From a virus (Duplodnaviria; Caudoviricetes), in IMG/VR virus record IMGVR_UViG_3300027659_000037, positions 1 through 60,661 of that record: 60,661 bases of DNA; one strand, given 5' to 3'. Made by a program: the position numbers and the translations under genes. Shown here one piece after another: positions 1,200 to 27,483 of the stretch (positions are counted from its first letter, which is position 1; every line of letters starts with the position of its first letter). The notes beneath the pieces were generated by a model. That model saw only the letters and a list, made by a program, of their open reading frames with translations. It was not told the DNA's origin and did no database searches.

Positions 1200-1562
1200 T
1201 TAACACACCGTCCCGCGAGTCTTACCACGCTGAGCTATACCATCCGCGCGCGCAGAAGCTGTACCACCTTTGGAGAAGTTCTCAGGATAGGTTTTAGCAG
1301 CGTTGTAGGCCTTGTCTTTTTTGGTCTGCATCTTGGCATCGTCAGCTTCTTGAACCATTTGTTTTTCTTTTTGGTTTTTTTCAGCTTGAGCGGTATCAGC
1401 CCTATTTTGCGCTTTTTCCAGCCCTTTATAAGCGGTTCCAAGTACAGCGCCGGTTATTCCAGCGCCTGCAATTTTAGCGCCTACTCCACTTCCGCCACCG
1501 CCGCCACGACCGCCGCCCTCAAGCGGCTGATCGTCCATCCCGTGCCTTGTATGTCTTCCCAT
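1200..1562 (-). CDS. Tagged small virion-cluster protein (DDQPLEGGG leader and C-terminal RADGIAQRGKTRG tag)
   Basis: Shares terminal motifs with 2793-3221 and 11073-11576. Confidence 0.8.
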   Translation of the reverse strand: MGRHTRHGMDDQPLEGGGRGGGGGSGVGAKIAGAGITGAVLGTAYKGLEKAQNRADTAQAEKNQKEKQMVQEADDAKMQTKKDKAYNAAKTYPENFSKGGTASARADGIAQRGKTRGTVC

Positions 1563-1565
1563 GAT

Positions 1566-2210
1566 TTAGCACATCTTTCCGCGAGTCTTACCGCGCTGAG
1601 CAATACCGTCACCACGACTGGAAGCCATACTGCTAGAAGCCATCTTCTTGACCGCGCCACCATGCTTCATTCCCGTTGCCGTCTGAACTTTGCCGCTTAA
1701 ATCACGGTATGTTTTGCCTTTATTTTCATCCGCTTTACGCATCGCCGGGCTGACGTAAGGTTTATTTGCATAATCCACAATGGCGGTTCCTACATCAGAC
1801 GCAGCTTTTTTTATCATGCGTTCATTTTCTTCACTTTTGCGACCTTGTTCGCCAAGATTAGGCTCTGAAGTTTCTTTGGGGGCAGGCGCGTCGGTTGCTT
1901 TTTTAATGTTACTGCTTAACCCAAACAAATCCGTAATATTTTTTGATCTATACGGTTTGTTTTCAACTTTTTCTTCGACTGCGGCTTTGCCAGCATTAGC
2001 TTCGGCTTTTTCTTCTTCGTCTTGATGAGCTTTTTGATTGGCTAGACCTTTAGCCTCTAAAGCTTTCATATCAACTTTTGAAGATGCTTTACTGGCGGGG
2101 GCAGAATCATCCTTCATTTTGGTGTTGTACTTCTTACCGCCAAATTCAAATTCTGTGTTGCCTGCTTCGCGGGCTGCACGGAATGCTTTACCAAATGCAC
2201 TTGTTGCCAT
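1566..2210 (-). CDS. Tagged virion-cluster protein (C-terminal RGDGIAQRGKTRG tag)
   Basis: AGGAG RBS; N-terminal FGKAFRAAREAG..FEFGGKKYNTK; ends MKHGG...SSRGDGIAQRGKTRGKMC. Confidence 0.8.
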   Translation of the reverse strand: MATSAFGKAFRAAREAGNTEFEFGGKKYNTKMKDDSAPASKASSKVDMKALEAKGLANQKAHQDEEEKAEANAGKAAVEEKVENKPYRSKNITDLFGLSSNIKKATDAPAPKETSEPNLGEQGRKSEENERMIKKAASDVGTAIVDYANKPYVSPAMRKADENKGKTYRDLSGKVQTATGMKHGGAVKKMASSSMASSRGDGIAQRGKTRGKMC

Positions 2211-2219
2211 GATTACTCC

Positions 2220-2615
2220 TTAGCAGGCTTTGCCGCCCATTTTCATCTTAACCATTTTTGCCTTGGTTTTGCCTTTAGAAGCAACGCCGTCAGCCGCTTT
2301 ATGACCAGCAGCCATGCCGCCTTTTTTCATCATGCCCATACCACCAGCAGGAGGGCGGGGGGCAGCGGGGGCAGCGCCCATAGCGCCCATAGCGCCTCTA
2401 CCAGCACCCATACCGCGTTTTTTGGCAGCCATAGCAGCCATCATCTTGGGATCCATTCTTGTAGCCATCTCGCCACCTCTTTTAAAAGTTTTGCCTTTAT
2501 CGGCGTTTGAAAAATCTTTGCCCACAGACTGTGGGACTCCGGCTTTCTTGGCAAACGCTGGATTATGGGCCACCGCTTCCATGAATCTGTGTTGCTTGGC
2601 GCTACTACTCGGCAT
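2220..2615 (-). CDS. Met/Gly/Lys-rich basic protein with a degenerate C-terminal tag
   Basis: MPSSSAKQHRFMEAVAHNP N-terminus; FKRGG, MKKGG, AADGVASKGKTKAKMV, MKMGGKAC. Confidence 0.75.
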   Translation of the reverse strand: MPSSSAKQHRFMEAVAHNPAFAKKAGVPQSVGKDFSNADKGKTFKRGGEMATRMDPKMMAAMAAKKRGMGAGRGAMGAMGAAPAAPRPPAGGMGMMKKGGMAAGHKAADGVASKGKTKAKMVKMKMGGKAC

Positions 2616-2796
2616 CGTCTTTCTTGCGATTCAACAATTTCTTCATAGTCTCGGTTTCGTAGATGCGGATTGCCACCCAAACAATACTGAGCAGTGCTGA
2701 GACAGCGGGTAAGAATTCCACAAGCGTTCCTATGACGGTGATAAGTGATACGCCATCAAGGGCATACTTTAGAGTTTCTTGGTTTTGTTCATTCAT
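2605..2796 (-). CDS. Small membrane protein (holin-like topology)
   Basis: 63 aa, long hydrophobic stretch and charged C-terminal tail; overlaps both neighbours. Confidence 0.6.
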   Translation of the reverse strand: MNEQNQETLKYALDGVSLITVIGTLVEFLPAVSALLSIVWVAIRIYETETMKKLLNRKKDDAE

Positions 2797-3221
2797 ACAA
2801 ACCTACCTTTTGTTTTGCCTTTGACAGCGCAGCCGTCAGCACGGGCTGAAGCCGTTCCCCCTTTAGCCATGCCTTTACCGGAAATGATTTCACCCATTCC
2901 AGCACGAGAAGGAGTTTTATCGTCTTTTTTATCCCCAGAGTCATCACTGACGGCGGTTTTTATACCCGCTGCGGCAGCACCAGCACCTGCTGCACGAACA
3001 CCTGTTCGGGCCGCTGCTCGATCTTGGGCATCTTCAGTCACCTTCTTAGCGCTACCACGTAAGTGTGAGGTGTCTTGATTGATTTTTTTGAGATCGCCCA
3101 TTGTGCTGGAACTACCTCTCAAAGAAGGCATCTTGCTGTACTTGGTTCCGCTGATGCTTGCGCCTGCGCCGCCGCCCTCAAGTATTTGGTCATCGGTTGG
3201 TTTCTTGCCAATTTTTGCCAT
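2793..3221 (-). CDS. Tagged small virion-cluster protein (DDQILEGGG leader and C-terminal RADGCAVKGKTKG tag)
   Basis: GAGG RBS; shared terminal motifs. Confidence 0.8.
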   Translation of the reverse strand: MAKIGKKPTDDQILEGGGAGASISGTKYSKMPSLRGSSSTMGDLKKINQDTSHLRGSAKKVTEDAQDRAAARTGVRAAGAGAAAAGIKTAVSDDSGDKKDDKTPSRAGMGEIISGKGMAKGGTASARADGCAVKGKTKGRFV

Positions 3222-3228
3222 GATTACC

Positions 3229-3483
3229 TCAACACTTCCATCTTGCTAAAGAAGCCGCCTTGCGGGTAGGCTTGCCTTTTTCATCTTTCATCGGGCCGGG
3301 CATACCAGACATACGTGCACAGAAAGAATCCTTGCGCTTGCCGCCTCCGGGCTGTGGAGCCTTCAAGTTGCTTCCTGTTGCTGCGTTGTACTTGGCACGG
3401 CCTTTGGCAGTCAAGCCCGCCCCCTTGGAAGCGGGTAGTTTTTCACCACGACCAATTGCAAGGGAGGGAGTTTTTTTAGCCAT
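3229..3483 (-). CDS. Small basic phage protein (DUF6321-like)
   Basis: GLTAKGRAKYN...NLKAPQP...SFCARMSG...LARWKC motif. Confidence 0.6.
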   Translation of the reverse strand: MAKKTPSLAIGRGEKLPASKGAGLTAKGRAKYNAATGSNLKAPQPGGGKRKDSFCARMSGMPGPMKDEKGKPTRKAASLARWKC

Positions 3484-3778
3484 AGAACACCGAGAGGCTG
3501 GTTAACGAGCCAACGCTCAGCGTCAAATACAAACCTGTACTTGCCAAAATACCTTCGCCGGGGACGAGGACATACGTAGAGTTGGCTACGGTTTGACTTG
3601 TAATGTCCATTGTGAACAAAACCTCGCCCGAGGCGCTACCGTCACGAATTTCAAATGTGCACGCGGTACTTATAGCAGGTGTAACAACAAAACCTTTGAG
3701 TCGTGTACGACCTGCGTAATACGACCCAGCGGTACTGCGGTGCGCTGACTTAACGTCTGTTTGCATTGCCATAATCAA
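3476..3778 (-). CDS. Putative virion structural protein
   Basis: Beta-rich, 100 aa; AGGAG RBS suggests the start is Met3 (about 3772); downstream of MCP. Confidence 0.55.
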   Translation of the reverse strand: MIMAMQTDVKSAHRSTAGSYYAGRTRLKGFVVTPAISTACTFEIRDGSASGEVLFTMDITSQTVANSTYVLVPGEGILASTGLYLTLSVGSLTSLSVFYG

Positions 3779-3815
3779 TCTCCTTTAGAACAGGGGCCAA
3801 AGCCCCTTAGATCAA

Positions 3816-4307
3816 TTATTGTTGAGTGGCGGTTGGGTTTGCAGAACCGTCAGAGTCTTTGACGACATACGTCAAGGTCAATATGCCAGCACCAGATGTG
3901 GCGGTGACGTTGGCCTGTGTAAACGTGATGATTGCGTCTGACGTACCTACGTTGTTACACAGCACAGCGGCGGCGGCAGAGTTATTGCCCAGCAAAATAT
4001 TTACGATGCCAGTGTTTGTAAATACGCTTCCGTTTGCGGCTGTATTAATTGCAACAGCATTAGCGAAGAGTGCGTATGTAGGAGTTGTTGTTGCATATGC
4101 AACAGTGGTGTTAAACGCCGCAGAAAGAATCTGTGAGCCTGCGGGAATCGTGAAGGCAACCGTAGCTGCTGTAATGTCCGTGTACAAAATGTCTTTAGAC
4201 TGCGATACGACTGTCGCGCCCAAATTGCGGATAGTGCCAGCGGTAGAGCCGGTGGTGTTTTTAACAGTGCCCAACAACCAAGGGCCAAGGTGAGTTGCGA
4301 ATCCCAT
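3816..4307 (-). CDS. Putative capsid-associated structural protein
   Basis: Thr/Ala-rich beta protein directly after MCP; GGAG RBS. Confidence 0.55.
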   Translation of the reverse strand: MGFATHLGPWLLGTVKNTTGSTAGTIRNLGATVVSQSKDILYTDITAATVAFTIPAGSQILSAAFNTTVAYATTTPTYALFANAVAINTAANGSVFTNTGIVNILLGNNSAAAAVLCNNVGTSDAIITFTQANVTATSGAGILTLTYVVKDSDGSANPTATQQ

Positions 4308-4315
4308 AAGAATAT

Positions 4316-4386
4316 CTCCATGCGTTATAGCGTATCAATCTTGCATGTCAGTCAGCCGGGACTGTTTGATACGCCGGGTTTCCCGG
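4316..4386 (-). ncRNA. Candidate structured leader RNA with a pseudoknot onto the RBS
   Basis: 9-bp stem 4330-4338/4366-4374, inner 5-bp stem 4349-4353/4360-4364, hairpin 4374-4386; CAUGC (4347-4343) is complementary to GCAUG (4323-4319), which abuts GGAG. Confidence 0.4.
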
Positions 4387-4405
4387 AATGTCTTCAATAT
4401 ACATC

Positions 4406-4436
4406 AAAAGAAAAGGAGGCACAAGGCCTCCTTTTC
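4406..4436 (-). terminator. Rho-independent terminator after MCP
   Basis: 11-bp stem GAAAAGGAGGC/GCCTCCTTTTC followed by a T run on the minus strand. Confidence 0.75.
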
Positions 4437-4443
4437 AGTCTTT

Positions 4444-5355
4444 TTAGGACGAACCGGGGGAACCAAACATTCCCAACGGATCAGACCAGCCGAACGAATA
4501 ACGCTCGCGGGACTTGTAACGCACGTTACCGGTGTCAAAGTCGCCGTCCATGCTGTTAGACAGCGGAGTACGGACAAAGTGCTTCATACCGTTAGGCACG
4601 TCAGTAGTCAGATACCAACCATTGTTGTCGGTCAAGAAGTGGTTCTGTGTGTATCCCTCAGGGATAGAACCGTTATTCTTCAGAGCATTGATATCGTTGT
4701 CGGTAGTGCCAACACGCAGGCTGGTTTCCAACAGGCGGGTAGCCACGAATTGCAATGCAGGGGGAATAATTAACTTCTTAGGCTTAGCAGCGATCAACAG
4801 GCCACGCTCGTCTGTCCAAGCAGCGATCTGAATAACAGCGTTTTCCAACGAAGTTTCATTCAAGTCAGCAGCAGTAGCAGGACGGTTGGAGTTAGTGCCA
4901 CCGTTAATCAGCGGGTGAGCAGTGCTGAACAGAGCAACGCCATCACCACCGGTATAAGCGGCAGAGAAACCATTGTTCAAAACAGCAGCAGATTTAACCT
5001 GCTTGGTGTAGGACATAGCGCGAGCCAGACCTTTGGTGTAGCGAGCAGACAAGCTGTCGTACAAGTTGTCCTCAATGGCCTCTTCGGTCAATGAGAAACC
5101 CAAAGCAATGGTTTCGTGGTTATATCGAGCAGTCCATGCTTCCTGTGCATTGTCGTAAGCGATGGCGGAGCCTTCACTCTTAACAGGAGCAGCAGAGAAA
5201 CCAGACAGTTTAGTCTCTTCTTCAAAAGAACGCTCTGAAGTTTCGGTTTCATAAATTTCTTTATGCTCCTCGCCGTAGCGAGAATATTCCAAACCAAACA
5301 AAGCATTCAAACCGGGAAGGAGTTCCTTCAGTAGTTGCGCGCGTGAAATAGCCAT
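4444..5355 (-). CDS. Major capsid protein
   Basis: MAISRAQLLKELLPGLNALFG...GDFDTGNVRYKSRERYSFGWSDP, a recognisable phage MCP family; AAGGAG RBS; follows the scaffold. Confidence 0.9.
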   Translation of the reverse strand: MAISRAQLLKELLPGLNALFGLEYSRYGEEHKEIYETETSERSFEEETKLSGFSAAPVKSEGSAIAYDNAQEAWTARYNHETIALGFSLTEEAIEDNLYDSLSARYTKGLARAMSYTKQVKSAAVLNNGFSAAYTGGDGVALFSTAHPLINGGTNSNRPATAADLNETSLENAVIQIAAWTDERGLLIAAKPKKLIIPPALQFVATRLLETSLRVGTTDNDINALKNNGSIPEGYTQNHFLTDNNGWYLTTDVPNGMKHFVRTPLSNSMDGDFDTGNVRYKSRERYSFGWSDPLGMFGSPGSS

Positions 5356-5366
5356 GATTTAGCTCC

Positions 5367-6209
5367 TTATGCACCAGTGGCAGAGTAGTAACCGTGCAGT
5401 GCTTGGTTAAATTTAACCAATACTTCAGGAAACTGGGTGAACACAATAGTGGATGAGCTAGGAATAGCTGTAACACTGCCGGGGACTGCAATCGCAGCGT
5501 TAATCGTAACTGATGTCGCAGCGGCTGACGCAGCGGCGGTTACAAAAGAACCTGTTTGAATGATTTGCCCATTTGCTGCAACGTAGGATACATCTGTTCC
5601 AATAGGGATTGCGCTAGGCAAGCCAGAACCTGTTAAGGTAATTGTTGTAGAAGATGAAGAGCCGGTTGCAGTCGTAGTAATAGCAGACTCATGTATCAAG
5701 CCAACCAAACGCAAAGGTAAGGTGGTTGTTACTGGAGTTGCCGTAGGAGCTAAAACTGCGTTAGCAGAATTACCAGTGGTTGTGCTACCTGTATTGTTAA
5801 TGGCGGACAGGTTGGTACCAATCATAGCCATAGCAGCGGAAGCAATAACAGTAGTGGCGGAACATACAGCAGCCTTAAACACAGCATCAGGATCGTCCAA
5901 CACATAGGCTTCACAGTCACCTGCAAGAGTTCCTGAAGGCCAGTATTGGTTGAATTGCTTTTGCTTAGTTAAAGGATTGGTGAAAGTACAACCCAAGAAA
6001 ATACCAACCGTTTGGTTTAAACCAGTGCCAGTAGAAACTGAGGCACGAGTTACAGAACCACGCGATAGTACGACGAAATCACCGTAAAAGATGTCGGTCG
6101 CATAACCGTACTGGATGGGGTACATACGGGTAGAACCCGCAAATACTTGACCACCAATTAGGTTCTGCGGCAACAGCCCGTACGGAGCTGATACAGCGGG
6201 ATAAGCCAT
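5367..6209 (-). CDS. Capsid decoration/minor capsid protein
   Basis: APYGLLP...IFYGDFV...VGIFLGC...VLDDPDAVF motif typical of the gene preceding this MCP type. Confidence 0.6.
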   Translation of the reverse strand: MAYPAVSAPYGLLPQNLIGGQVFAGSTRMYPIQYGYATDIFYGDFVVLSRGSVTRASVSTGTGLNQTVGIFLGCTFTNPLTKQKQFNQYWPSGTLAGDCEAYVLDDPDAVFKAAVCSATTVIASAAMAMIGTNLSAINNTGSTTTGNSANAVLAPTATPVTTTLPLRLVGLIHESAITTTATGSSSSTTITLTGSGLPSAIPIGTDVSYVAANGQIIQTGSFVTAAASAAATSVTINAAIAVPGSVTAIPSSSTIVFTQFPEVLVKFNQALHGYYSATGA

Positions 6210-6228
6210 TTAAGGACTCCTTGAAAAT

Positions 6229-6696
6229 TTAAGTACCTTTGCCAAAGCTTGTCGAAGACTTGTTCTCTCTAAAGAGCGGCATCCTCGGATCACTTTGACG
6301 CATTAGGCTATTGTCTACAGCTTCCGCTTGAGCTTTTGTGAACTTCGTAACGTAATCCTCACGTTGCTCCATAAACTCAGACGGGCACTTGCAAAGCAAC
6401 AGCCCACCAATTTCGATATTATTTTTAAATCGACTATCGGGGTCGATTAAGAACTGGAACTTGGGTTGTTCTTCAATTGCGACTGGCTCCCAACCTTCCC
6501 GGAACTTGCCGGAAATGTTTCGTTGGTCTACCTTGTCCAAAGTAGAAACCCTTACCCATCTGTACGCATATCCCGGCTGTTTATCAGGCTCAGGAAGGAG
6601 ATCCGCTTGCTGCCACTGTTTAGGGCGCTCTTGCGTAGCTCTGCTCTGCATTTCACGCGACAATCTGTTTTCTGCTACTTTTACGTCTGTTGCCAT
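6229..6696 (-). CDS. Conserved head-module hypothetical protein
   Basis: PGYAYRWVRVS...REGWEPV...IGGLLLCK; lies between scaffold and capsid genes. Confidence 0.6.
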   Translation of the reverse strand: MATDVKVAENRLSREMQSRATQERPKQWQQADLLPEPDKQPGYAYRWVRVSTLDKVDQRNISGKFREGWEPVAIEEQPKFQFLIDPDSRFKNNIEIGGLLLCKCPSEFMEQREDYVTKFTKAQAEAVDNSLMRQSDPRMPLFRENKSSTSFGKGT

Positions 6697-6697
6697 C

Positions 6698-7672
6698 TTA
6701 GGCCTCCAATTTCATCATTTCACGGGCGTACTGCTCGTTGGTTAATCTGAGTTTTTTAGCCAAGGCAACTTGTGTCTTTGTTAGCACGACCTGTTTGGGG
6801 GCGGTACTACGTTTAGCAGGTGCAACAACTGTGCTTGGTTTTGTACGTTGAGGTTTTTCCTCATCGTTGTTTGTAGTCGCCGCGAATTCTTCTGGGAATC
6901 TACGTCTGACTTCTTTGTCAATACTGCCGTAGTATTCGTCAGTACCTATATATCCACGTCCGTACCGTTCTGAAAGCTCTTCGTGGAATCCTTCAGCAAA
7001 TTTGCGCATCGCTAATTTGTTACGGTCTACAAACCATGGGTTGTTCGAGACCCAGTTAGCGACCTTAGGATCCATCTGCTGAGTTGCAGGCTGGTTAGTT
7101 TGGGTAGTTTGTACACGATTTTCATCAGTTTGTACAGTGGGCCTGAAATTCTTTGCTTTATCAAGCTTCATTTCTGCTCGAACTAACTCTTTCTGCGCAG
7201 CCAAAACTTTATCAGAATCTCCAGAGTCATAAGCCTCTTTGTAATTCCGTTCAGCTTTGTCAATTTCCATTTCAGCAGAACTTTGATACGTAGAAATTAA
7301 TTCTTTCTCGCCTGTTTGAATCATAGACTTGAGTCTTTTATTCTCGTCTAGAATTCGTTCAGCGACTGTCAGCGCCTCTTGTTGTTCACGCAGGGCTGAT
7401 TCTTTTGCACGCCGCTCGTCATGCCAAGCCTTTTTATATTGCTTAAACTTGACTTTTACGTTCTTTGTGTACTCTTCAGACTCATCAGCATTTTCAAGTT
7501 CTTGCTGTGTGTTTTCGTCCAAAGGGGGCGCTACAAATCTATCTTCTTGGGGTGTGTCGTCAACGATCTTTACCTCGACTTCATCCTCCTCAATAGTGAT
7601 ATTTACCTCTTGGGCATTCTTTTCTTCCTCGAGTTCATCGGGAAATCTGTATGGATCACCAAATCTTGACAT
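6698..7672 (-). CDS. Capsid scaffolding protein
   Basis: Acidic N-terminus, coiled-coil, WVSNNPWF, C-terminal LTKTQVALAKKLRLTNEQYA; position before the capsid genes. Confidence 0.7.
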   Translation of the reverse strand: MSRFGDPYRFPDELEEEKNAQEVNITIEEDEVEVKIVDDTPQEDRFVAPPLDENTQQELENADESEEYTKNVKVKFKQYKKAWHDERRAKESALREQQEALTVAERILDENKRLKSMIQTGEKELISTYQSSAEMEIDKAERNYKEAYDSGDSDKVLAAQKELVRAEMKLDKAKNFRPTVQTDENRVQTTQTNQPATQQMDPKVANWVSNNPWFVDRNKLAMRKFAEGFHEELSERYGRGYIGTDEYYGSIDKEVRRRFPEEFAATTNNDEEKPQRTKPSTVVAPAKRSTAPKQVVLTKTQVALAKKLRLTNEQYAREMMKLEA

Positions 7673-7681
7673 GTACGCTCC

Positions 7682-8092
7682 TTATTTGCGTTTGATGCCA
7701 CGGGGGTCTTCTACAACACCTTCGACTGAGTCGTCGTTGATGATGCGGAATTCGCGTCCGTGGATGAGTAGGCGTGAGCCTGCGTTGGGTCGAGTCAACA
7801 CAAAATCACCTTTTTGACACCAAGGCCCAGTCGGAAACTTTGCCTTGTCTGCGTAGCAGTCTGGGCCAAGATCGACAACGAACAAAACTGTAGTGAGCAG
7901 CTCGTCGTATCGCAGGGTCTCGTCTGCTTTGATAATCCCAATATCGCCTTCATACTCCTTCTCCTGCTCGGGGATCGCGCACAGGATTTTGTAGCCCGCA
8001 GGCTTTGGTAGTTGAGTCGCCTTCTCTTCATCTTTCTTGTGCATGATCGCTTCGAGGTTTAGCGCCAGCCCAAGATCTAAAGTTTCACTCAT
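7682..8092 (-). CDS. GroES-like co-chaperonin
   Basis: PAGYKIL...GII...VVDLGPDCY...GDFVL...AGSRLLIHGREFRIINDDSVEGVV follows the GroES pattern. Confidence 0.8.
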   Translation of the reverse strand: MSETLDLGLALNLEAIMHKKDEEKATQLPKPAGYKILCAIPEQEKEYEGDIGIIKADETLRYDELLTTVLFVVDLGPDCYADKAKFPTGPWCQKGDFVLTRPNAGSRLLIHGREFRIINDDSVEGVVEDPRGIKRK

Positions 8093-8291
8093 CTAATTTC
8101 TCCAAGTTTTTCGTCAGGTCTGTGATGTATCTACGAGCGGTGAGCAGACCTGTAATTTCCCCACACATCCCGCAGTACTCGTCGTACGACCTAGCAGCTC
8201 GCGCTCCCAAGGCATCTTCGAGTTGTTTGACTTTCTCGTCAATTTGTTTCGCTGTGAACTCCAGCGCTTGTCTTATTTCGTAGGACATCAT
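8085..8291 (-). CDS. Hypothetical protein
   Basis: 68-aa helical ORF coupled to portal and GroES. Confidence 0.6.
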   Translation of the reverse strand: MMSYEIRQALEFTAKQIDEKVKQLEDALGARAARSYDEYCGMCGEITGLLTARRYITDLTKNLEKLDE

Positions 8292-10816
8292 TCATCCTTC
8301 TTTACTGGTGTTTTTTGTGGTTGGTTTCGCATCTGTCTATCCTGCTGTTTGCCTTGATGAGACAACTGCTCCCGTTGTCTGACCATGTCCATGCCTGTAC
8401 GGAAGCCATCAGCCTCTTGTTGATGCGCGCGCTGTGCTTCATTGTTCTGGTGTTGCATTGCAATCCTGGCTCCTTCAGTCTCTTGGTTGGCCTCAATACG
8501 CTTGAGTTCAACTTGAATCTGAGCCATCTTGGCCTGCATATCAGCCATGTCTTTCTGGGCCTTACGCTGCAAGTCTTGTTGCTTGATCTGCAACTCTTGT
8601 TGCTGCAACTGGATAAGCGGATCTTGAGCTTGCTGTTGGTTCTTCTGCTGTTGAGCTTCTTGCTGGTTTTGCTGGAGAAGTTGCTGAGATGCTTGCGCTG
8701 CCATCTTAGAAACTTGAACTTCCATCTCAGGAGACATTTGTTCTTCGTCCTTCTCCTCCTCGTATGGGGGTAAGGTCTGATCCATAGTCATCTCAACTTG
8801 CTTACGGTACTCCATACCTAAATGCTCGAATACGTGAGCCATCATTGCAGCTTGTAATTGCTGAGCCATCTGAGGATTCATACCCACGATGCTTTGTATT
8901 TTTGGATCCTGCATTGCTGTCATATGAACTGCAATATGGGCTTGATGATCCTGATACAAGAAAGCCTTGACCGGCTTATTAGAAAGGATGTTCATGTTCT
9001 CTGTGACTGGGTCACGCGGCTTCATGTCCTCTGCAACTGGTATCAATTTTTGGTAGTTCTTAATACCAATCACGTCTAACATCTGTCTATGAAGCTGGGG
9101 TAGGTCATACAGTTGTGGCGCAGTCTGGGCTAATTGAAGAGCCGCCTGATACTGAACAACTTTCTGAGCCATCGTTGCTGCATTAGGATCACTTACTGGA
9201 ATCACTTCCACGTAGTCATAGTCACTCTGCTTAGCGTGACGACCGCCTTCTTCTGGCTCGTAGCTGTACTCTGTAGGAGTGTAGTCGCGGATGATATCTT
9301 TGAGTAGCTTAAACTCCTGCCTCATCGAATAATGGACACGGGCCTGAATTGCACTCATAGTTTTGAGTTGACGCTCAAGAATAGCCAGCGTTGTACCAAC
9401 CGGGGACTGGGCCGACATGTCAGCCACTTGCAGGTCAACAGTGCCAGCAAACTTACGGCCTTCATCAATGATTGTCTGGAGGAGAGCAGCCAGAACCTGA
9501 CTTGGTTCTTTGTATGGCAGCGGCATTATGTTGTCGCGTAGGTTGCCACTTGGGACGTCCATGTCACGGAACTCTCCGGGACTTATCGGTGTGTCGTCTC
9601 CTTTGGATCGAAGCCCCCGTGTTTTAAAGCCCCCGGGTAGATTCGCCAGAGTACCAGCATCCACCAACTGACGCAGGATAGAAGTGCCAGACTTGGCAAA
9701 AGCACCAATAAGATGAATAAGGCCGAAACAGTAAAATCCAAAGCCCGGGATATAGCCGTAATGCACAAAGTGAGTACGTTTAATACATTGCTCATCTTCT
9801 GGTCTCCAGTTTCTACGTATCGCTAACACGTCACCTGAACTCTTCTCAATAGTGACGATGTAAGGCAGGGCAATCCCAGTCTCATTCCCATCGTCGTCCG
9901 TATGCTCATAACCGGGCAAGTCCATCTCGACCTGCATCTCCAAGAGCTTGAAACGGTCATCCTCAGACGCCCTAAAGCCAAGCTTCTCAGCGATCTTCTT
10001 CTCTACCTCGTCCATGACATTGATCGGATCACCCAAGTCAATATCTCGGTAAAAACCTTCATGCTGCAATTTCTTAAGCTCGTTCGCAGTTTTGCGCATC
10101 ACGTGGGTCACACGTTCTGCTGAGTCCAAACTTGAAGCACCGTAGGGCACAACCACGTCCTCGGCTGGCACATACATAGAGACCTGACGATTCAAGCTGG
10201 GATCAAAGTACACCTTCTTGAACGCGTTACCCGCCAGACCCAAGCCCCACAACATGCGCTCATGCTCGGGGCGAAACTCCTTCATCACGTCCGTCAGTTG
10301 GTAGTTCATATCTACCTGTACGCGCTCAGCCGCTTTCTTCTTCTCAGGAGTCTCTTTGCCGATGATCTGAGTCTTAACTGGGCCTGCTGCTGGGAACGTA
10401 GACATCATGGTCTCAGCTTGAAACTTAACGACGGACTCACTCAATATTGGGTGAAACACACCACATGCTCCGGGCCAAGGCTCCATACGTTCTTCAAGCT
10501 TCATACCAAGCAACTCAAGACCATCTACATATGTCTGAATATAATCTTTGCGACTAGAGACATCTGCCTCATACTCACCAACAAGATCCCCAGATAAGCG
10601 CGTCAAGTCGTCATCGCTCATATCTTCAGCTAAGTTCTTGCTAAACTCGTCTTCGTCCTCAGACTTCTCCATCTCAATCTCAAAGCCCGGGCCTCTGATA
10701 CTTACAGCTTCTGGGTCTTCGATCGTGATCTCAATCGGCTCATCTTCCTCACCAAGTTGCTCTATGCCCTGAGGTGCGTCTGTATAGACTGATTTGTCCA
10801 TGTTTGTTGCCATCAT
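8288..10816 (-). CDS. Portal protein
   Basis: 842 aa after TerL; PWPGACGVFHPILSESVVKFQA, LRQLVDAGTLANLP; Gln-rich C-terminal barrel as in P22-type portals. Confidence 0.88.
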   Translation of the reverse strand: MMATNMDKSVYTDAPQGIEQLGEEDEPIEITIEDPEAVSIRGPGFEIEMEKSEDEDEFSKNLAEDMSDDDLTRLSGDLVGEYEADVSSRKDYIQTYVDGLELLGMKLEERMEPWPGACGVFHPILSESVVKFQAETMMSTFPAAGPVKTQIIGKETPEKKKAAERVQVDMNYQLTDVMKEFRPEHERMLWGLGLAGNAFKKVYFDPSLNRQVSMYVPAEDVVVPYGASSLDSAERVTHVMRKTANELKKLQHEGFYRDIDLGDPINVMDEVEKKIAEKLGFRASEDDRFKLLEMQVEMDLPGYEHTDDDGNETGIALPYIVTIEKSSGDVLAIRRNWRPEDEQCIKRTHFVHYGYIPGFGFYCFGLIHLIGAFAKSGTSILRQLVDAGTLANLPGGFKTRGLRSKGDDTPISPGEFRDMDVPSGNLRDNIMPLPYKEPSQVLAALLQTIIDEGRKFAGTVDLQVADMSAQSPVGTTLAILERQLKTMSAIQARVHYSMRQEFKLLKDIIRDYTPTEYSYEPEEGGRHAKQSDYDYVEVIPVSDPNAATMAQKVVQYQAALQLAQTAPQLYDLPQLHRQMLDVIGIKNYQKLIPVAEDMKPRDPVTENMNILSNKPVKAFLYQDHQAHIAVHMTAMQDPKIQSIVGMNPQMAQQLQAAMMAHVFEHLGMEYRKQVEMTMDQTLPPYEEEKDEEQMSPEMEVQVSKMAAQASQQLLQQNQQEAQQQKNQQQAQDPLIQLQQQELQIKQQDLQRKAQKDMADMQAKMAQIQVELKRIEANQETEGARIAMQHQNNEAQRAHQQEADGFRTGMDMVRQREQLSHQGKQQDRQMRNQPQKTPVKKDE

Positions 10817-11076
10817 CTACCCTTTAGAGTTGCCCGGTTTGTACGAGCTGAATACGTAAAATCTTTTGCGGGGTGACCTGTGCTTTTCACTGCACGATCC
10901 TTTGCCCGTTCTTCAGCAGTCATCATGTTGCGTTTCTGTCCTGCTGCTGTCAGTGACCCGTCTTCCTTCATATGCCCACGCTGTTTGAGTATGGCAATCG
11001 CCGTGTCCTTGTTACCGACCTGTGCTGCAAGCCGATCAACCAACTGATTGCGTCCCATAAACTTCTGTGTAGTCAC
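10813..11076 (-). CDS. Hypothetical basic protein
   Basis: 87-aa ORF coupled by 4-nt overlaps on both sides. Confidence 0.6.
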   Translation of the reverse strand: MTTQKFMGRNQLVDRLAAQVGNKDTAIAILKQRGHMKEDGSLTAAGQKRNMMTAEERAKDRAVKSTGHPAKDFTYSARTNRATLKGR

Positions 11077-11576
11077 TTGACCATTCTCCCTCTAGTCTTG
11101 CCACGGGAAGCTATGCCATCTGCGCGGGAAGAAGCGGTAACCTTGCCCCCCTTTTTAAGAGGTTCAAAACCCCCGCTGTCTGGGTTGTATCTCTCCACAT
11201 CTTTCCTGCTTACCGCCCTGTTTTTGGGAACTTTTTCAATTGGTACGCGAAGCACGGAGGAGCCTTCAGAAACATTGGTCGGCACATTGTCAGACTGGGT
11301 GAAGTATTTTTGTTTTTTACCGCCTTCTTTAGGAAGCATATACCCAGATTCTTTAATTGCCTCAAGTTCTTCTGGCCCTCTTACGTTTCGACCAGCATAT
11401 TTACCAGAAGCTGGCAAACCGTCTGTTTCTGAATAAACTGAGTTTTTAACTCTTGGGCGCATGAAAACTTCGGCTTTGTCTTTGATTTTCCCCATCAAAG
11501 AACTAAACCCGCCTCCGCTCCCGCCGCCTTCAAGCAATTGTTCGTCTAGTCCGCGTTTTGAATTGTTTTTAGCCAT
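11073..11576 (-). CDS. Tagged protein with a putative ADP-ribosyltransferase-like core
   Basis: DEQLLEGGG leader; core GRNVRGPEELEAIKESG...KYFT; C-terminal LKKGG..SSRADGIASRGKTRGRMV. Confidence 0.6.
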   Translation of the reverse strand: MAKNNSKRGLDEQLLEGGGSGGGFSSLMGKIKDKAEVFMRPRVKNSVYSETDGLPASGKYAGRNVRGPEELEAIKESGYMLPKEGGKKQKYFTQSDNVPTNVSEGSSVLRVPIEKVPKNRAVSRKDVERYNPDSGGFEPLKKGGKVTASSRADGIASRGKTRGRMVK

Positions 11577-11584
11577 GTGAGTCC

Positions 11585-13111
11585 TTAATAATATGCCGCT
11601 TTTTTGCGGAACATCTTCTTGACGAAAGTGTCTTCTGGCTCATCGGTATCCAAGCGGATAAAGCCACCCTGCCGAAATCTCAACAGAGCCAATGTTGTGG
11701 AGTCTACCAAGTCATCGTTCGCTCCGCTAGGGAAGTCGTTGCATTCTTCTATGACTTCCTTTGCCCATCGTCTGTCCGGCGCATAGACCACGCCCCCTTG
11801 GAACAGACTGGAAACTGCGTTGACACGGGCAATCTTGTCCTGCCCCTTGCCCGGGGTGAACTCACCCACCGGTATGCCCATGCGCCTGAACTCTTGGTAC
11901 AGCGCCGCTCCGTTGGACTTCTTCTCCACCATGAACGCGTCTGGCTGCCACTCTTTGTACTCGTCAATGATCAAGGCTTTCAACTCGGGAAACTCGAGAC
12001 GTTTCTTGATTGAGTTTAAGAGAATGATCGCGTAATTGTTCGTCTCCTCATTGAAGAAGACTCCCCACGTCGTCAAAGCGTTGTAATCTGACCGATTTGT
12101 GGCTTCCTGCGCCGCATCCAGACTCATGATGGTGAACTCGCACGGGGGTGGCTCCTCTTTGTCCCAGATCTTCCACCACTCCCTCTTAATAAGAGCGCCT
12201 TCCTCGGACACGGGGTTCTGCATGTATTGGGCATTCCAATACCGCACGTCCAGCGCAGCTTTCTTGGCGTAAAGCTCTTCTACAGGCCAAAACTCGGGCC
12301 AAAGTGCCTCGCCATCGTCTGTGATTGCTGGAAACTCGACCACTTCCCACTGATCGACACCCTCTTCGCGGTTCATCTGGTTGACAATCATCCCTGTCAA
12401 GTCCAGCTTCGACCACCGAGTCATCACAACAATGATTGCACCGCCCGGCATAAGTCGCTGGAGAGGGCCAGACTGAAACCACTCCCAAGCAGGAAGAAAA
12501 ACATCAGCTCGCCCAGTCTTAGCGTCTTGTTCCGAATGAGGATCATCAATAATAAACAGATCAGCACCTCGACCAGCAAGAGCGCCACCCACACCGATTG
12601 CGAAATATTCCCCATGGAAGTTTGTACCCCATCTTGATGCCGACTTCGAGTCAGCTTGCAGCTCAACTTGCGGAAAAATGTCCTTGTAGTTGTCCATTCC
12701 CACCAAATTTCGCACTCTACGACCAAAATTCACTGCCAAATCAGCAGTGTGCGAGGCCATGATGATCTTTTTCTGTGGGTGCTTGCCCAAAAACCATGCT
12801 GGAGCAAGGTATGAAATCAATTCTGACTTACCGTGACGGGGTGCGATGTTTACAATCACCCTTTTCTTCTTGCCGTTGGCAATATCCTCGAAGATTTGGG
12901 CCAATTTCAGGTGGTGAGGGCCAACTTTGTACCCCGGATAGACGTGTTTGACGAAGTCAAGGAACGATTCCTTGCTCAAATCCTGCGTCATCTGGGCATC
13001 GTAGGTCTTAAGTAGCTCAAGAGTGCGTCTCTTTTGCTTCTCGGGCATTGTCGGCAGGGCTTGCCGTAGTTTAAATAGCTGTTCTGGAGAGAGTTGTGGA
13101 AGTGCTGTCAT
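11585..13111 (-). CDS. terL: Terminase large subunit
   Basis: Walker A IAPRHGKS, Walker B FIIDDPH, coupling motif MTRW, nuclease SLDAA...DDLVDS. Confidence 0.95.
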   Translation of the reverse strand: MTALPQLSPEQLFKLRQALPTMPEKQKRRTLELLKTYDAQMTQDLSKESFLDFVKHVYPGYKVGPHHLKLAQIFEDIANGKKKRVIVNIAPRHGKSELISYLAPAWFLGKHPQKKIIMASHTADLAVNFGRRVRNLVGMDNYKDIFPQVELQADSKSASRWGTNFHGEYFAIGVGGALAGRGADLFIIDDPHSEQDAKTGRADVFLPAWEWFQSGPLQRLMPGGAIIVVMTRWSKLDLTGMIVNQMNREEGVDQWEVVEFPAITDDGEALWPEFWPVEELYAKKAALDVRYWNAQYMQNPVSEEGALIKREWWKIWDKEEPPPCEFTIMSLDAAQEATNRSDYNALTTWGVFFNEETNNYAIILLNSIKKRLEFPELKALIIDEYKEWQPDAFMVEKKSNGAALYQEFRRMGIPVGEFTPGKGQDKIARVNAVSSLFQGGVVYAPDRRWAKEVIEECNDFPSGANDDLVDSTTLALLRFRQGGFIRLDTDEPEDTFVKKMFRKKAAYY

Positions 13112-16259: not shown

Positions 16260-16625
16260 AAAAGAGTAGAACAAATGGGGTCGAGTAGAACAGAAAAACC
16301 CTCGTAAGTCCTTGTCAGCATTGAAGAAAAAGTTTTTGTTCTAATGTTCTACGATTTTGAGCATAGGGGTCAGGATTTTGCAGTTTTTCTCAATCGCAAG
16401 ACTTACCTGCTGAGTGCAAAGTTGCAGTCGAAAAAATCGAAATAAAACCGTATCCCCCCTAAAAACCGTAGAACATTAGAACAAGTTTCTTTTCTTTCTT
16501 TCTTTTTTATAAAATAATAATACTTCTCCTTACAAAAAACACAGAAAACCTACTTCAAGTAATACTCGTTTTTGTTCTAACTTTACATAGAAAAATAGAA
16601 CAAGTGGTAGAACATTAGAACAAAC
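16260..16625. other. Putative replication origin (TAGAACA iterons around an AT-rich core)
   Basis: TAGAACATTAGAACAA at 16469 and 16608, inverted at 16336; single copies at 16267, 16286, 16572 (inverted) and 16596; no ORFs; AT-rich stretch 16485-16570. Confidence 0.5.
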
Positions 16626-16652
16626 GCCTTGAATAACTATCTTACCGTATCA

Positions 16653-16758
16653 CTTGTGTTAAATGTATAGTTGTGGTATACTTATATCTGAGTCGAGGAT
16701 GAAACGCTTGCAGGTCGCAAGCACCACGGCTTGTTTAGTGTTCCGTCATCAGACGGAA
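16653..16758 (+). promoter_or_regulatory. Sigma70-type promoter (copy 1) plus downstream palindromic site
   Basis: TTGTGT, 17-bp spacer, TATACT (16677) with extended -10 TG; palindrome at 16741-16758. Confidence 0.75.
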
Positions 16759-16789
16759 CGGATCAATGTCAGACCTTTAGGAGAGAGTC

Positions 16790-17083
16790 ATGAAAATGTT
16801 TTTTGTTGCCCCGATGCTTCCTGCATCCATTGCACGCCCCATCATTCGTTTGCACAAGCCCCGCGTTGCTTACAACCATGCGCAGACAGATCTCACCGAG
16901 ACCATGCGCCGTGATGCGTTGCGCACCGATACGTACTTCAATCAGAATTTAGAGTTCTTGGACAGAGACTACGATTTCGACGAGTTCCAAGACATTGACA
17001 ACGAGCATGAGGGCTTGACCATAACCGAGCCAATGTCCGAGGTCGAGTTGTTCCAGTTCTGCACTGGCTACGACACCATCTAA
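16790..17083 (+). CDS. Hypothetical protein with acidic C-terminus
   Basis: AGGAG RBS. Confidence 0.7.
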   Translation: MKMFFVAPMLPASIARPIIRLHKPRVAYNHAQTDLTETMRRDALRTDTYFNQNLEFLDRDYDFDEFQDIDNEHEGLTITEPMSEVELFQFCTGYDTI

Positions 17084-17094
17084 TTTATTCAGCG

Positions 17095-17112
17095 TTCCGT
17101 CTACGGACGGAA
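17095..17112. promoter_or_regulatory. Palindromic site TTCCGTC-N4-GACGGAA
   Basis: Perfect match, intergenic. Confidence 0.75.
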
Positions 17113-17138
17113 TCAATTCCCTCATCAAGGAGAATCAC

Positions 17139-17504
17139 ATGGGACGTTTCAAAGATATTGCCATCGGCATGGTGGAAGACCACGAACAAGTACAGGGTGA
17201 CTTGTTCATCGACGATGAACTGCGCACGTTGATGCAGAACTTCAAGCCAACAGCAGAGGAACTTCAAGCTGAACTAGATGAACTGCAAGCTCATGCGATG
17301 AGCTTACCAAGTCTTTGTGTTCAGCCTGAGGTGAAAGTTTATTTGCTGATGAAGAACGGTTTCCCTCAGCGCTCATACACGGACAGGGCGTTGGCGTTCT
17401 ACGAGTGCTGGATTTGCACCGAGGGAGACATGCACGCCGAGACACCCGACGACTACTACGTTGTCGAGATCATGCACGACACATCCACTTACACAGGGGA
17501 ATGA
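17139..17504 (+). CDS. Hypothetical protein
   Basis: AAGGAG RBS. Confidence 0.7.
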   Translation: MGRFKDIAIGMVEDHEQVQGDLFIDDELRTLMQNFKPTAEELQAELDELQAHAMSLPSLCVQPEVKVYLLMKNGFPQRSYTDRALAFYECWICTEGDMHAETPDDYYVVEIMHDTSTYTGE

Positions 17505-17505
17505 C

Positions 17506-17718
17506 ATGAAAGTAAGACAGATACGCCGAAGGGCGAAGACCAAGTATGTAACGGAGGCGGGCTTTGCTTTCTTGCGTGGATGCTTTGCCAAGCGATGCCG
17601 TACCTATGAGGCGGGATGTCCCACTTGTGATGAGTGGCGCTTTCGTGACGAGCATGGGCGGTTCGTCTACAACTGGGATGAGTTGCGTAAGTACATGGAC
17701 ACAACGGAGGAAGTATGA
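17506..17718 (+). CDS. Hypothetical Cys-rich protein
   Basis: MKVRQIRRR...KRCRTYEAGCPTCDEW; GGGGA RBS. Confidence 0.6.
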   Translation: MKVRQIRRRAKTKYVTEAGFAFLRGCFAKRCRTYEAGCPTCDEWRFRDEHGRFVYNWDELRKYMDTTEEV

Positions 17719-17963
17719 ATGATTTCTTTTGGAACTACCGCATCGTCAACACAAAGACTGCTAACGGAGGGGAGGATTGGTACTGCATCCAAGAGGTGAT
17801 ATACAACGAGGACGGCAAACCCGAGAGTTATGGCGAGCCTTGCCTTGGGTCAGAGGATATGGAATCCTTTGGCGATGTGTGGCACATGATGCAGGAAGCG
17901 ATGACCTTGCCCCCATTGCAGGAAGAAGATTTTGTCCAACCAACACAGGAGTATTTCGCATGA
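17715..17963 (+). CDS. Hypothetical protein
   Basis: WNYRIV...IQEVIYNEDGKP; GGAGG RBS. Confidence 0.7.
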   Translation: MNDFFWNYRIVNTKTANGGEDWYCIQEVIYNEDGKPESYGEPCLGSEDMESFGDVWHMMQEAMTLPPLQEEDFVQPTQEYFA

Positions 17964-18118
17964 ATCCAATCTATTACATATGCACTGCCGTCATATCTTG
18001 CGGGTTCATCGTGGTGGGGTGGGGTGGCGAGGGCTATCTGCACTACCTGTGCCTGATCTTGGGCGGCGTGGGGTTCGGTGCAACTGTCACCGATGCGTTG
18101 AATTACACAGGAGAGTGA
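17960..18118 (+). CDS. Small two-TM membrane protein
   Basis: AGGAG RBS; two hydrophobic segments. Confidence 0.55.
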   Translation: MNPIYYICTAVISCGFIVVGWGGEGYLHYLCLILGGVGFGATVTDALNYTGE

Positions 18119-18121
18119 GTA

Positions 18122-18301
18122 ATGAATATCACAGTCGAGATCAGGGAGGTCTATGGTCAGTCCAAGATCTACCCAGTGTGTGACAAGGCGCAGACGTTTG
18201 CGCATATCGCAGGGACAACCACGCTACTGCCCCGAGACATCCAACGCATACAGATGTTGGGGTTCGAGGTCTTGGTAAAACAGAAGGAGTTGAAGTTATG
18301 A
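18122..18301 (+). CDS. Hypothetical protein (59 aa, below ORF-track cutoff)
   Basis: MNITVEIREVYGQSKIYPVCDKAQTFAHIAGTTTL...; AGGAG upstream. Confidence 0.65.
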   Translation: MNITVEIREVYGQSKIYPVCDKAQTFAHIAGTTTLLPRDIQRIQMLGFEVLVKQKELKL

Positions 18302-18516
18302 GCAATGACATTCACGAACCAGAGTGCAGGCAATGCGGTGATGAGTATTCCGTCAACAGGTGGAAGCTTGGTTACAAGTTCTGCTTACCATGCGGCGAGC
18401 GTATCGCACAGAAGATCGTGCGCACTGTCGTGCCCATGCACAAGTCCAACTACGTGATGCTGACTGACATGGCTGACTTGAAAGGCATCAACAACAAGGG
18501 AGGGTTTCACAGATGA
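18298..18516 (+). CDS. C4 zinc-finger protein
   Basis: CRQCG-x13-CLPCG (DksA/TraR-like spacing). Confidence 0.65.
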   Translation: MSNDIHEPECRQCGDEYSVNRWKLGYKFCLPCGERIAQKIVRTVVPMHKSNYVMLTDMADLKGINNKGGFHR

Positions 18517-18764
18517 ACCACACACTAACAGATGAGTATCTATCCATTGCAATGACGGAATCAACGATGCGGAGGGCACACATGATTAGCACAGCGAATG
18601 GGGAAACCCTTGAGTCAGAAGCAGAGGAGGCGTTCTATGCCTACCTGACCGAGTTGCAACAGCAAGTAAAGATGCTTGTCGCTGAGGACAGGAAAATCAG
18701 TGCGACCTTGCGTGATGTGTTTCTTGCGGGATACCGCGCGTCAGAAGAAAGGAGATTCAGATGA
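18513..18764 (+). CDS. Hypothetical protein
   Basis: Coupled ORF with GGAGG RBS. Confidence 0.6.
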   Translation: MNHTLTDEYLSIAMTESTMRRAHMISTANGETLESEAEEAFYAYLTELQQQVKMLVAEDRKISATLRDVFLAGYRASEERRFR

Positions 18765-19087
18765 TGTACGGAGATGACATGAGCCACATGGTGTCGGTGT
18801 TCGTGCCGGTGGGCAGGGACAAGCCATGCCTACCATACGATGAATTCATAACTGAGGGAGGGTTTCATCCAAGCTCGTTCGCTGAAAGTTCTGAGTATGG
18901 TCGCCACTTCTATACCAAGTACGAGTTCCCGAACGGCAAGAAGGTGAGCGTGATCTGTGGGGCAATGTTCTATTCACGGACAGATGCCCCATACGAGGTG
19001 ATGTTTGAGGACGAGGACGAACCGTATGGGTATCAGACCGACGAGGAGTTGATGATTCTTTTAGCCAAAGCAATAGGAGATGCGTAA
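18761..19087 (+). CDS. Hypothetical protein
   Basis: YEFPNGKKVSVICG..YS..PYEV motif; AGGAG RBS. Confidence 0.65.
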   Translation: MMYGDDMSHMVSVFVPVGRDKPCLPYDEFITEGGFHPSSFAESSEYGRHFYTKYEFPNGKKVSVICGAMFYSRTDAPYEVMFEDEDEPYGYQTDEELMILLAKAIGDA

Positions 19088-27478: not shown

Positions 27479-27483
27479 TTCGT

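Follow-up and report, generated by a model that had tools for sequence, protein, structure and literature searches.

A portable C-terminal peptide on hypervariable small head-module proteins of freshwater HTVC023P-like podophages, a candidate capsid-docking signal

The virion module of an uncultured tailed phage represented by the IMG/VR virus record IMGVR_UViG_3300027659_000037 (60,661 bases, estimated to be 95% complete; this whole stretch is hereafter termed the window) contains five minus-strand open reading frames (ORFs), here named A to E, whose products end in the same short segment, KGG-x(1-3)-[ST]AS-x-R-[AG]-D-G-[IC]-A-x-[RK]-G-K-T-[RK]-G-x-x-x, which we refer to as the tag. The core pattern DG.A.[KR]GKT[KR] has exactly five matches in the six-frame translation of the window, all on the minus strand (1215-1244, 1581-1610, 2262-2291, 2808-2837, and 11091-11120) and each 4 to 13 residues before a stop codon; 200 mononucleotide shuffles of the window yielded no match in total, and a profile of the tag recovered only these five sites from the whole record at an E-value of ≤1. 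Identical residues of the 19-residue core are often spelled by different synonymous codons (13 of 15 for A versus D, 10 of 14 for B versus E, and 5 of 15 for A versus E), indicating that it is the peptide that is under selection. The original prediction, made from the sequence of the window, had singled out these five proteins as sharing an ending conserved at the protein level, with one member set apart from the others between TerL and the portal gene, and in these respects it was correct. Two further accounts of the shared ending were considered and dropped: conservation at the DNA level, as a repeat or a ribosome-binding signal, against which the synonymous differences argue, and a copy of the end of a conserved head protein, given that the profile matches only the five genes in this genome.

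Four of the tagged genes belong to a single cassette in which the genes abut, or almost abut, their neighbors. Gene A (1200-1562, minus strand; 120 amino acids [aa], net charge +7; profile E-value 1.3e-17) has an N-terminal LEGGG motif and a Gly/Ala-rich body preceding the tag, and shows a weak match to phrog_3112, a “virion structural protein” family (E-value 0.0095). Gene B (1566-2210, minus; 214 aa, +12; 1.3e-15) has a long disordered body, at the N terminus of which is a mini-domain (F..AF..AR..G..FEF.GKKY.TK) that recurs in four Rhizobium phage records. Gene C (2220-2615, minus; 131 aa, +20; 1.9e-6) combines a DUF3008-like N-terminal domain (phrog_16759, E-value 2.7e-20) with a degenerate tag, which is followed by a 13-residue extension ending in Cys. 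Gene D (2793-3221, minus; 142 aa, +11; 3.1e-14) again begins with an LEGGG-containing segment and has the DGC...RFV form of the tag. The distant member, gene E (11073-11576, minus; 167 aa, +13; 6.7e-19), lies between TerL and the portal gene, where a further small ORF (10813-11076, minus; net charge +10) is also located. Scans of the five proteins against Pfam, PHROGs, and NCBIfam detected nothing for the tag.

To delineate the spread of the tag, we scanned IMG/VR with the core pattern, which gave at least 599 matches, 436 of them confirmed; the best 80 loci among these at least 436 are the related viral loci referred to throughout. They contain 202 tagged ORFs, with one per locus in 11 loci, two in 29, three in 29, four in 9, and five in 2. 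In 139 of these ORFs, exactly 4 residues separate the end of the core from the stop, and 49 have the C-type variant with an extension of 11 to 20 residues; the remaining 14 show a spacing of 1, 5, or at least 30 residues. A 40-position profile built from 74 nonredundant tags, when run against 1.84 billion representative proteins, retrieved 8,510 at an E-value of ≤1e-3 and 2,099 at ≤1e-10, these being representatives of clusters at 50% identity. The best 150 matches are proteins of 37 to 266 aa, almost all matched at their very end. Of 8,000 candidates scored in a word-index search, 7,480 passed, and the 120 matches listed carried no Pfam domain and no name other than “hypothetical.” Among the 262 best database hits, 261 were tag-bearing (median length 111 aa, maximum 379 aa), 245 of these having exactly 4 residues after the core, and 8 of the 262 possess two copies of the tag. 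The 379-aa protein is three tagged proteins fused in frame, with Q at the positions of the expected stops (...GKMC-Q-ENIM...), which suggests either a gene call under a code that reads the stop as Gln or genuine readthrough in some relatives.

The tag is absent from PHROGs, in which 72 of the 74 tags matched nothing and the other two matched DUF6321 families only, both of them being DUF6321 fusions. A tblastn search of 50,697 phage records, run with the low-complexity filter on and, for the tag, with a short query, found no match for protein E (limit 0.01) or for a 32-aa tag (limit 10). Across 185,579 species genomes the tag is present in only 16 loci, all in metagenome-assembled genomes (MAGs) or uncultured contigs, and the titles of these records (Nanopelagicales, Methylopumilus, Cyanobium, and a river sample) point to fresh water. 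A single tag closes the 308-aa protein UMO75986.1 in the complete record of Planktothrix phage Pag-Yong1, and no relatives of that protein were found in viral contigs; the complete records of Pelagibacter phage HTVC027P and phage DSL-LC04 gave no match. The sole carriers found in culture are Planktothrix/Synechococcus phages Pag-Yong1/MinM2/Pra-JY27, with UMO75986.1 as the tagged protein. Against PDB sequences, the profile retrieved only spurious “KGG.V” matches to designed propeller proteins. The literature on Pag-Yong1, Pra-JY27, DUF3008, and DUF6321 held nothing relevant, the motif itself not being searchable there. Separately, in a high-GC actinobacterial MAG contig (4249-6090, plus strand), the tag closes a 613-aa frame whose upstream part resembles a multipass membrane protein; phage genes are absent from its flanks, and the contig is probably chimeric or the frame overextended.

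The tag itself consists of a KGG hinge, the segment [ST]AS.R[AG]DG[IC]A.[RK]GKT[RK]G, and three further residues, the last of which is Cys or hydrophobic; little or no variation is seen at KGG, AS, R, D, G, A, G, K, T, and G, and the net charge is about +7. AlphaFold2 predicted no stable fold for the tag alone (74-row alignment; predicted local distance difference test [pLDDT] score of 59), and in the model of full-length E the tag residues 144 to 167 fall below a pLDDT of 50. Thus, it behaves as a short linear motif. Its G-[IC]-A-x-[RK]-G-K-T stretch formally fits the Walker A pattern G-x4-GK[ST]: in 289 distinct tags, positions 2 and 7 are G and position 9 is T throughout, and K occupies position 8 in 288, with R in the one exception. 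However, the pattern ends 6 residues before the stop and hence cannot sit in a P-loop fold; it is not embedded between the strand and the helix of an alpha/beta domain with a Walker B motif, as in P-loop nucleoside triphosphatases (NTPases), and the five proteins have no P-loop matches in Pfam. Cys, absent from the bodies, is frequent in the tag: of the same 289 tags, 124 have it at the last residue only, 61 after DG only, and 4 at both positions, while 84 have no Cys, such that the two positions are mutually exclusive (Fisher p = 2e-16, uncorrected for relatedness). They could face each other in a hairpin around the K-T dipeptide.

The genomic neighborhood of the tagged genes is constant, the 80 viral loci all having the gene order of the window, with co-oriented genes: major capsid protein (MCP), a homolog of the gene at 3816, a homolog of the gene at 3476, DUF6321, one to five tagged genes, and then p909, p679, and the adaptor-like gene; the slot between DUF6321 and p909-p679-adaptor is likewise preserved, co-oriented, in 14 of the 16 MAG loci. 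The adaptor was seen in 79 of the 80, p909 in 78, and DUF6321 and p679 in 58 each, the shortfalls for the adaptor, p909, and DUF6321 being mostly attributable to contig ends. This constancy implies that the tagged genes fill one hypervariable slot of a strongly conserved head module, with a few loci having an additional tagged gene directly after the adaptor. The bodies found in the cassette of the window recur unevenly: C is present in 66 of the 80 loci, B in 9, D in 4, and A in 3. Gene C is therefore the conserved member of the cassette, and the original prediction, which had labeled it degenerate, was right about its tag alone. The expectation that a profile search would find the tag always in head modules held for every locus examined, each co-oriented with head genes, but within only one phage lineage. 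The second tag site of the window is unusual: in 80 further relatives surveyed for the gap between TerL and portal, TerL was visible in 75 and no tagged gene was found, TerL being followed directly by the portal gene in 68 and by only an ORF like that at 10813 in 7, with only the portal visible in 5. Nor does any homolog of the E body occur within the 80 cassette loci. Within the lineage, mean column identity is 87% for the MCP (18 sequences), 74% for the portal N terminus, and 50% for the scaffold, and the median for the adaptor is 57%.

The proteins bearing the tag are remarkably diverse. With the tag removed, 191 bodies fall into 66 single-linkage clusters (E-value ≤1e-4) or 110 strict clusters, 85 of which are singletons, and the 18-residue core has a median identity of 72% over 14,857 pairs taken from different strict clusters. 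Body clustering by itself does not prove independent origins, as disordered sequence diverges fast. Stronger evidence for portability comes from fusions of the tag to modules with their own distributions. The N-terminal domain of C is found untagged in 119 phage records, including phiKZ, and heads PHROG families annotated as virion structural proteins. DUF6321 is encoded as a separate, untagged gene in the window (3229-3483, minus; 84 aa, net charge +16; PF19846, 80.9 bits against a cutoff of 28.5, E-value 1e-22) and in its relatives, and carries the tag in seven loci. As for the E family, 45 homologs with bodies 61 to 96% identical include 37 with the tag, 6 with a different basic tail that begins right after the KGG hinge, 1 that is truncated, and 1 that is apparently frameshifted. 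The tag is thus a portable protein-level module found on many mutually unalignable bodies. As a separate observation, the DUF6321 domain always ends in W-[KN]-C, and its matches in PHROG families of 99 to 928 aa lie at their extreme C termini (e.g., residues 438 to 525 of 525 in phrog_10346 and 858 to 928 of 928 in phrog_3477); hence, DUF6321 is in its own right a C-terminal module that recurs in larger phage proteins.

Not all the bodies are unrelated, as had first been supposed. Near their N termini, A, D, and E have in common the motif D[DE]Q.LEGGG, and with SEG filtering and composition correction switched off, blastp aligns them over their whole length (E-values 2e-12 to 5e-9). This second shared motif, written more generally as [DE][EQ].L[EI]GGG.GG, is situated 10 to 15 residues from the start of these three proteins; it also occurs in 8 of 195 tagged proteins of the related loci and in 25 of the 45 E-family members, and was never seen on untagged ORFs of the 80 loci. 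By analogy only, the N-terminal LLEGGG could be likened to a cleavage site of the T4 type, the consensus of which we take to be L-x-E; this pattern fits D and E but fails for A, which has P at the third position, and for ELLIGGG variants. Most bodies are disordered and of low complexity, rich in A, K, G, E, S, R, P, and D, with almost no W (0.1%) and C (0.0%), and they are polyampholytes (17.9% K+R and 14.5% D+E). The original view of unrelated domains carrying the tag stands for the DUF3008-like domain, DUF6321, and the folded E body, but most bodies are not distinct folded domains; and in place of interchangeable enzymes as payloads, the tagged proteins are small (median 111 aa) and mostly disordered.

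Protein E is the only one of the five tagged proteins with a confidently predicted fold. Its residues 1 to 29, which include the LEGGG motif, are disordered; residues from about 30 to 143 form an alpha/beta domain (pLDDT 70 to 86), and the tag (144 to 167) is again disordered. In Foldseek searches of the PDB, this domain gave only insignificant best matches, among them the Rhs toxin TreTu (7zhl, E-value 0.25) and a Tpt1-like protein (1wfx, E-value 1.6), both of the ADP-ribosyltransferase (ART) superfamily. Against predicted viral structures, the top matches were large multidomain proteins of mycobacteriophages and uncultured phages labeled “ParB-like nuclease domain” (E-values 7e-4 to 4e-3), with a phage ART (0.09) and a phage 2'-phosphotransferase (0.56) ranked lower. 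The E family has as invariant residues R63 (strand 60-65), T93-Q94 (strand 91-95), and E138 (strand 136-139), an order that corresponds to the R-S-E triad, which we take to be the catalytic motif of ARTs; the first position of the “E-x-E” varies. No ART family in Pfam was detected for 40 E-family members, a profile of the family found nothing meaningful among PDB sequences, and the ESM Atlas gave no named family for E. On the basis of these modeled structures, we regard an ART-like effector as a lead only, a possible identity for gene E that is in our estimate more probably wrong than right.

The remainder of the window places these genes in a recognizable phage type. Its source is an uncultured freshwater podophage related to the HTVC023P-type pelagiphages: the portal is 39 to 43% identical to those of Pelagibacter phages HTVC027P and HTVC023P and phage DSL-LC04, with Pag-Yong1, Roseobacter phages CRP-901/902, and Caulobacter phage RW in the same range; no nucleotide-level relatives were found among the 50,697 phage records. 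The plus strand encodes the replication genes, namely, a DNA polymerase (30019-31914), a helicase (34038-35594), and a primase/helicase (37275-40112), and the minus strand encodes the virion module. Following the direction of transcription of the latter, the head genes are TerL (11585-13111; phrog_38, E-value 1.8e-104), gene E and the ORF at 10813-11076, the portal (8288-10816; phrog_1216, E-value 1.8e-20), a small ORF (8085-8291), a GroES-like gene (7682-8092), a scaffold-like protein (6698-7672), the ORF following it (6229-6696), an ORF preceding the MCP (5367-6209), the HK97-like MCP (4444-5355), the ORF after it (3816-4307), and an ORF (3476-3778) that precedes the DUF6321 gene, the latter forming the conserved upstream border of the cassette. 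Its conserved downstream border is p909 (909-1199; 96 aa, net charge +16; phrog_17747), and p679 (679-912; 77 aa, +15; phrog_14910) follows directly before the adaptor-like gene (2-679), which runs off the start of the window; all of these are on the minus strand. Inside the cassette, an untagged minus-strand ORF of 63 aa (2605-2796), which shares a few bases with the end of each of its neighbors C and D and has homologs in 16 of the 80 loci, encodes one long hydrophobic helix and may be a small membrane protein, possibly holin-like. Elsewhere in the virion module, the minus strand contains two very large ORFs, 40293-46799 (2168 aa) and 46802-49762 (986 aa), with no PHROG matches at an E-value of ≤1e-5; judged by position, they are candidate internal or ejection proteins.

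All nine small proteins of this set, i.e., the five tagged proteins, the DUF6321 protein, p909, p679, and the product of the ORF at 10813-11076, have the strongly positive net charges given above, from +7 for A to +20 for C. Strongly acidic stretches are found in two of the head proteins: in 30-residue windows, the N-terminal arm of the portal (residues 1 to about 90) and that of the scaffold (residues 1 to about 70) are both markedly acidic, the former with the lineage-conserved IEIEIEDPE and the latter with FKFPDE ... DDTP.EDR. Both arms display motifs of alternating hydrophobic and acidic residues (IEIEIEDPE; IEIVDDTPEEDR) kept across the lineage, and the scaffold arm motif is absent from the scaffolds of HTVC027P and Pag-Yong1. 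We consider the two arms to be candidate docking sites for the tag. Co-folding of a 40-aa tag with the scaffold, the MCP, and portal residues 1 to 130 gave a score of 0.00 in both runs, which were made without controls, and counts neither for nor against binding. In the head modules of HTVC027P and DSL-LC04, small proteins that lack the tag and have net charges between +10 and +27 are likewise encoded in runs, at 16286-19057 in HTVC027P (gp44 to gp54, in a different position, between portal and GroES) and at 22225-22830 and 27391-28828 in DSL-LC04. Several of these proteins have KKGG stretches and basic C termini ending in IC or IY, a likeness to the tag judged by eye only. As the tagless relatives keep such arrays, arrays of small basic proteins in the head module seem to be general in this group of phages, and the sharply conserved tag is a specialty of the clade to which the window belongs.

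Taking these findings together, we propose, with a probability of roughly 0.4, that the tag serves in docking and thereby brings small basic late proteins into the head. Its fixed C-terminal position, disorder, portability, and setting in a late head-module operon, along with the charge complementarity to the acidic arms, favor docking, and its unfolded state would suit a peptide that acquires structure upon binding its partner. The Foldseek matches of the E body to large “ParB-like” phage proteins point the same way, such polyvalent proteins being predicted to be packaged and injected (PMC5512222). According to this proposal, a freshwater clade of HTVC023P-like podophages would have its own portable and disordered docking peptide at the C terminus of late proteins that are small, basic, and for the most part disordered. 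The genes for these proteins occupy a cassette with rapid turnover, situated after the capsid-decoration genes and before the adaptor, and in the window also a site between TerL and portal. The tag would recruit its bearers to the assembling head via a conserved head component, for which the acidic N-terminal arm of the scaffold or portal or the highly conserved MCP is a candidate. We infer that the bearers, having bound the head, would be packaged, come to lie within the capsid alongside the DNA, and be delivered into the cell at infection, as are the T4 internal proteins. Several observations weigh against this proposal. No virion proteome or structure for a tag-bearing lineage was found in the literature; the tag is confined to one lineage and Pag-Yong1, and its consistent occurrence in head modules is hence confounded by shared descent; and the bodies, for the most part disordered polyampholytes some 100 aa long, are not obvious payloads, with no tag-bearing protein above 379 aa among the 262 best hits. 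Further, Pfam and PHROGs revealed no prohead protease family in 10 head-module ORFs, the MCP matching only the capsid part of fused protease-capsid families, which argues that processing of the T4 type is absent, and the tagless arrays of HTVC027P and DSL-LC04 indicate that the tag is not required for the function of such arrays. A more ambitious form of the proposal, which we consider doubtful, is that the tag is a natural C-terminal capsid-cargo address in a virus, equivalent to the cargo-loading peptides of encapsulins, that docks on the acidic scaffold or portal arms in the procapsid and hands its bearer to the incoming DNA via a phosphate-gripping G-x4-GKT, with the clade, a freshwater sister of the most abundant group of ocean phages, loading and injecting hypervariable small proteins (more than 8,500 clusters), including an ART-like enzyme.

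The Walker A-like pattern raises the alternative that the tag itself binds nucleic acid or phosphate and that its bearers are small DNA- or RNA-binding factors lacking any specific address function, acting, for example, in charge neutralization or in the handling of the nucleoid or of transcripts, either in the infected cell or on the packaged genome. The charge of the tag and of every small protein of the set, the persistence of the G-x4-G-K-T pattern across the 289 tags (with the single R at position 8), the double copies in 8 of 262 proteins, as would befit a multivalent binding motif, and the retention of small basic arrays in tagless relatives all accord with it, and short polypeptides bearing a P-loop are described as binding phosphate ligands and single-stranded DNA in two reports (bioRxiv 10.1101/2020.07.30.228619; PMC10119929). 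However, a generic DNA binder need neither end a fixed 4 residues from the C terminus nor conserve the D, the A, and the positions taken by Cys or hydrophobic residues; real P-loops lie in a beta-loop-alpha context that is lacking here, AlphaFold2 giving no such fold; and the bodies are polyampholytes rather than polycations. On balance, we think this alternative rather improbable.

In another reading, the tagged proteins are one fast-diverging, tandem-duplicated family of paralogs and the tag is merely its only constrained segment, such as a degron, an oligomerization motif, or a regulatory motif. Here the tag on modules with independent histories (the DUF3008-like domain with its 119 untagged records, DUF6321 with its seven tagged loci, and the folded E body) and its replacement at the KGG hinge in 6 of 45 E homologs make such a history unlikely, even though A, D, and E are alike at both ends and can be aligned throughout, the genes stand in tandem with one to five copies per locus, disordered bodies would quickly lose alignability, and the phenomenon is limited to one lineage. 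Also in favor of such a history, the basic residues followed by a hydrophobic end resemble the ClpX C-motif 2. Finally, the tag could anchor its bearers on the capsid exterior as decoration “hairs,” with their variable disordered bodies facing the environment. The genes do follow the MCP and cement-like or decoration-like genes, the usual position of decoration genes; the bodies are hypervariable; and the conservation of the MCP (87% mean column identity, versus 50% for the scaffold) is as expected of a conserved docking surface. Strongly basic proteins and the folded, enzyme-like E are nevertheless better suited to the interior, on the side of the DNA, and one to five genes of very different lengths would be atypical of stoichiometric decoration proteins; consequently, we judge an exterior role to be quite unlikely.

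Irrespective of its mode of action, the motif, which is undescribed in the libraries (Pfam, PHROGs, and NCBIfam) and the literature searched, defines thousands of “hypothetical” proteins of aquatic viromes (the 8,510 clusters) and marks the fastest-changing slot in the head module of HTVC023P-type relatives. Should it prove to be a loading signal, it would be without a described C-terminal precedent in tailed phages and would offer a simple handle for putting proteins into podovirus capsids, and the cassette would amount to a catalog of injected small proteins, likely aimed at host defenses. If it is instead a DNA- or phosphate-binding mini-motif, it would represent a natural Walker A-like loop working outside the NTPase fold.

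Several known systems offer parallels for the docking proposal. In phage T4, the prohead protease cleaves off the capsid-targeting sequence (CTS). The CTS is the only conserved part of the diverse internal proteins of T-even phages and by itself loads foreign proteins (PMC3012670). The tag is like the CTS of IPI-III and Alt in being a short, conserved terminal peptide on diverse, fast-evolving, small basic proteins encoded in the head cluster, but the CTS is N-terminal, whereas the tag is C-terminal, unrelated in sequence, only a putative loading signal, and found in a phage for which a prohead protease was not detected. The cargo-loading peptides of encapsulins are described as short, disordered, usually C-terminal segments that address cargo to the inside of an HK97-fold shell and that load heterologous proteins fused to them (PMC8346489, PMC11866011). 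The tag, too, is a disordered C-terminal peptide, but encapsulins are DNA-free cellular compartments, no sequence similarity to their peptides was found, and binding of the tag to the MCP is only a candidate interaction. The consensus of the encapsulin peptides is hydrophobic and Gly-rich, not basic. Another small basic head protein of a podovirus, gp6.7 of phage T7, is encoded near the portal gene and released at infection; it is the product of a single gene rather than of a tagged family, and we know of no motif that it shares with the tag. In phage P1, the Dar anti-restriction proteins are reported to be packaged in the head via a dependency chain (DarA/Hdf) and injected with the DNA (PMC12810830), and loading there is described as proceeding through dedicated partner proteins instead of a common terminal peptide. 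The polyvalent and MuF-linked effectors (Iyer et al. 2017, PMC5512222), of which the polyvalent phage proteins are predicted in that work to be packaged and injected, resemble the present system in placing effector domains among virion genes, and the best Foldseek matches of the E body are “ParB-like.” As presented there, they are large and multidomain, with the MuF, portal, or another domain thought to mediate packaging, whereas the tagged proteins are small and single-module with a 25-aa tag. By analogy, while it is a member of neither class, the tag resembles both the T4 CTS and the encapsulin cargo-loading peptide.

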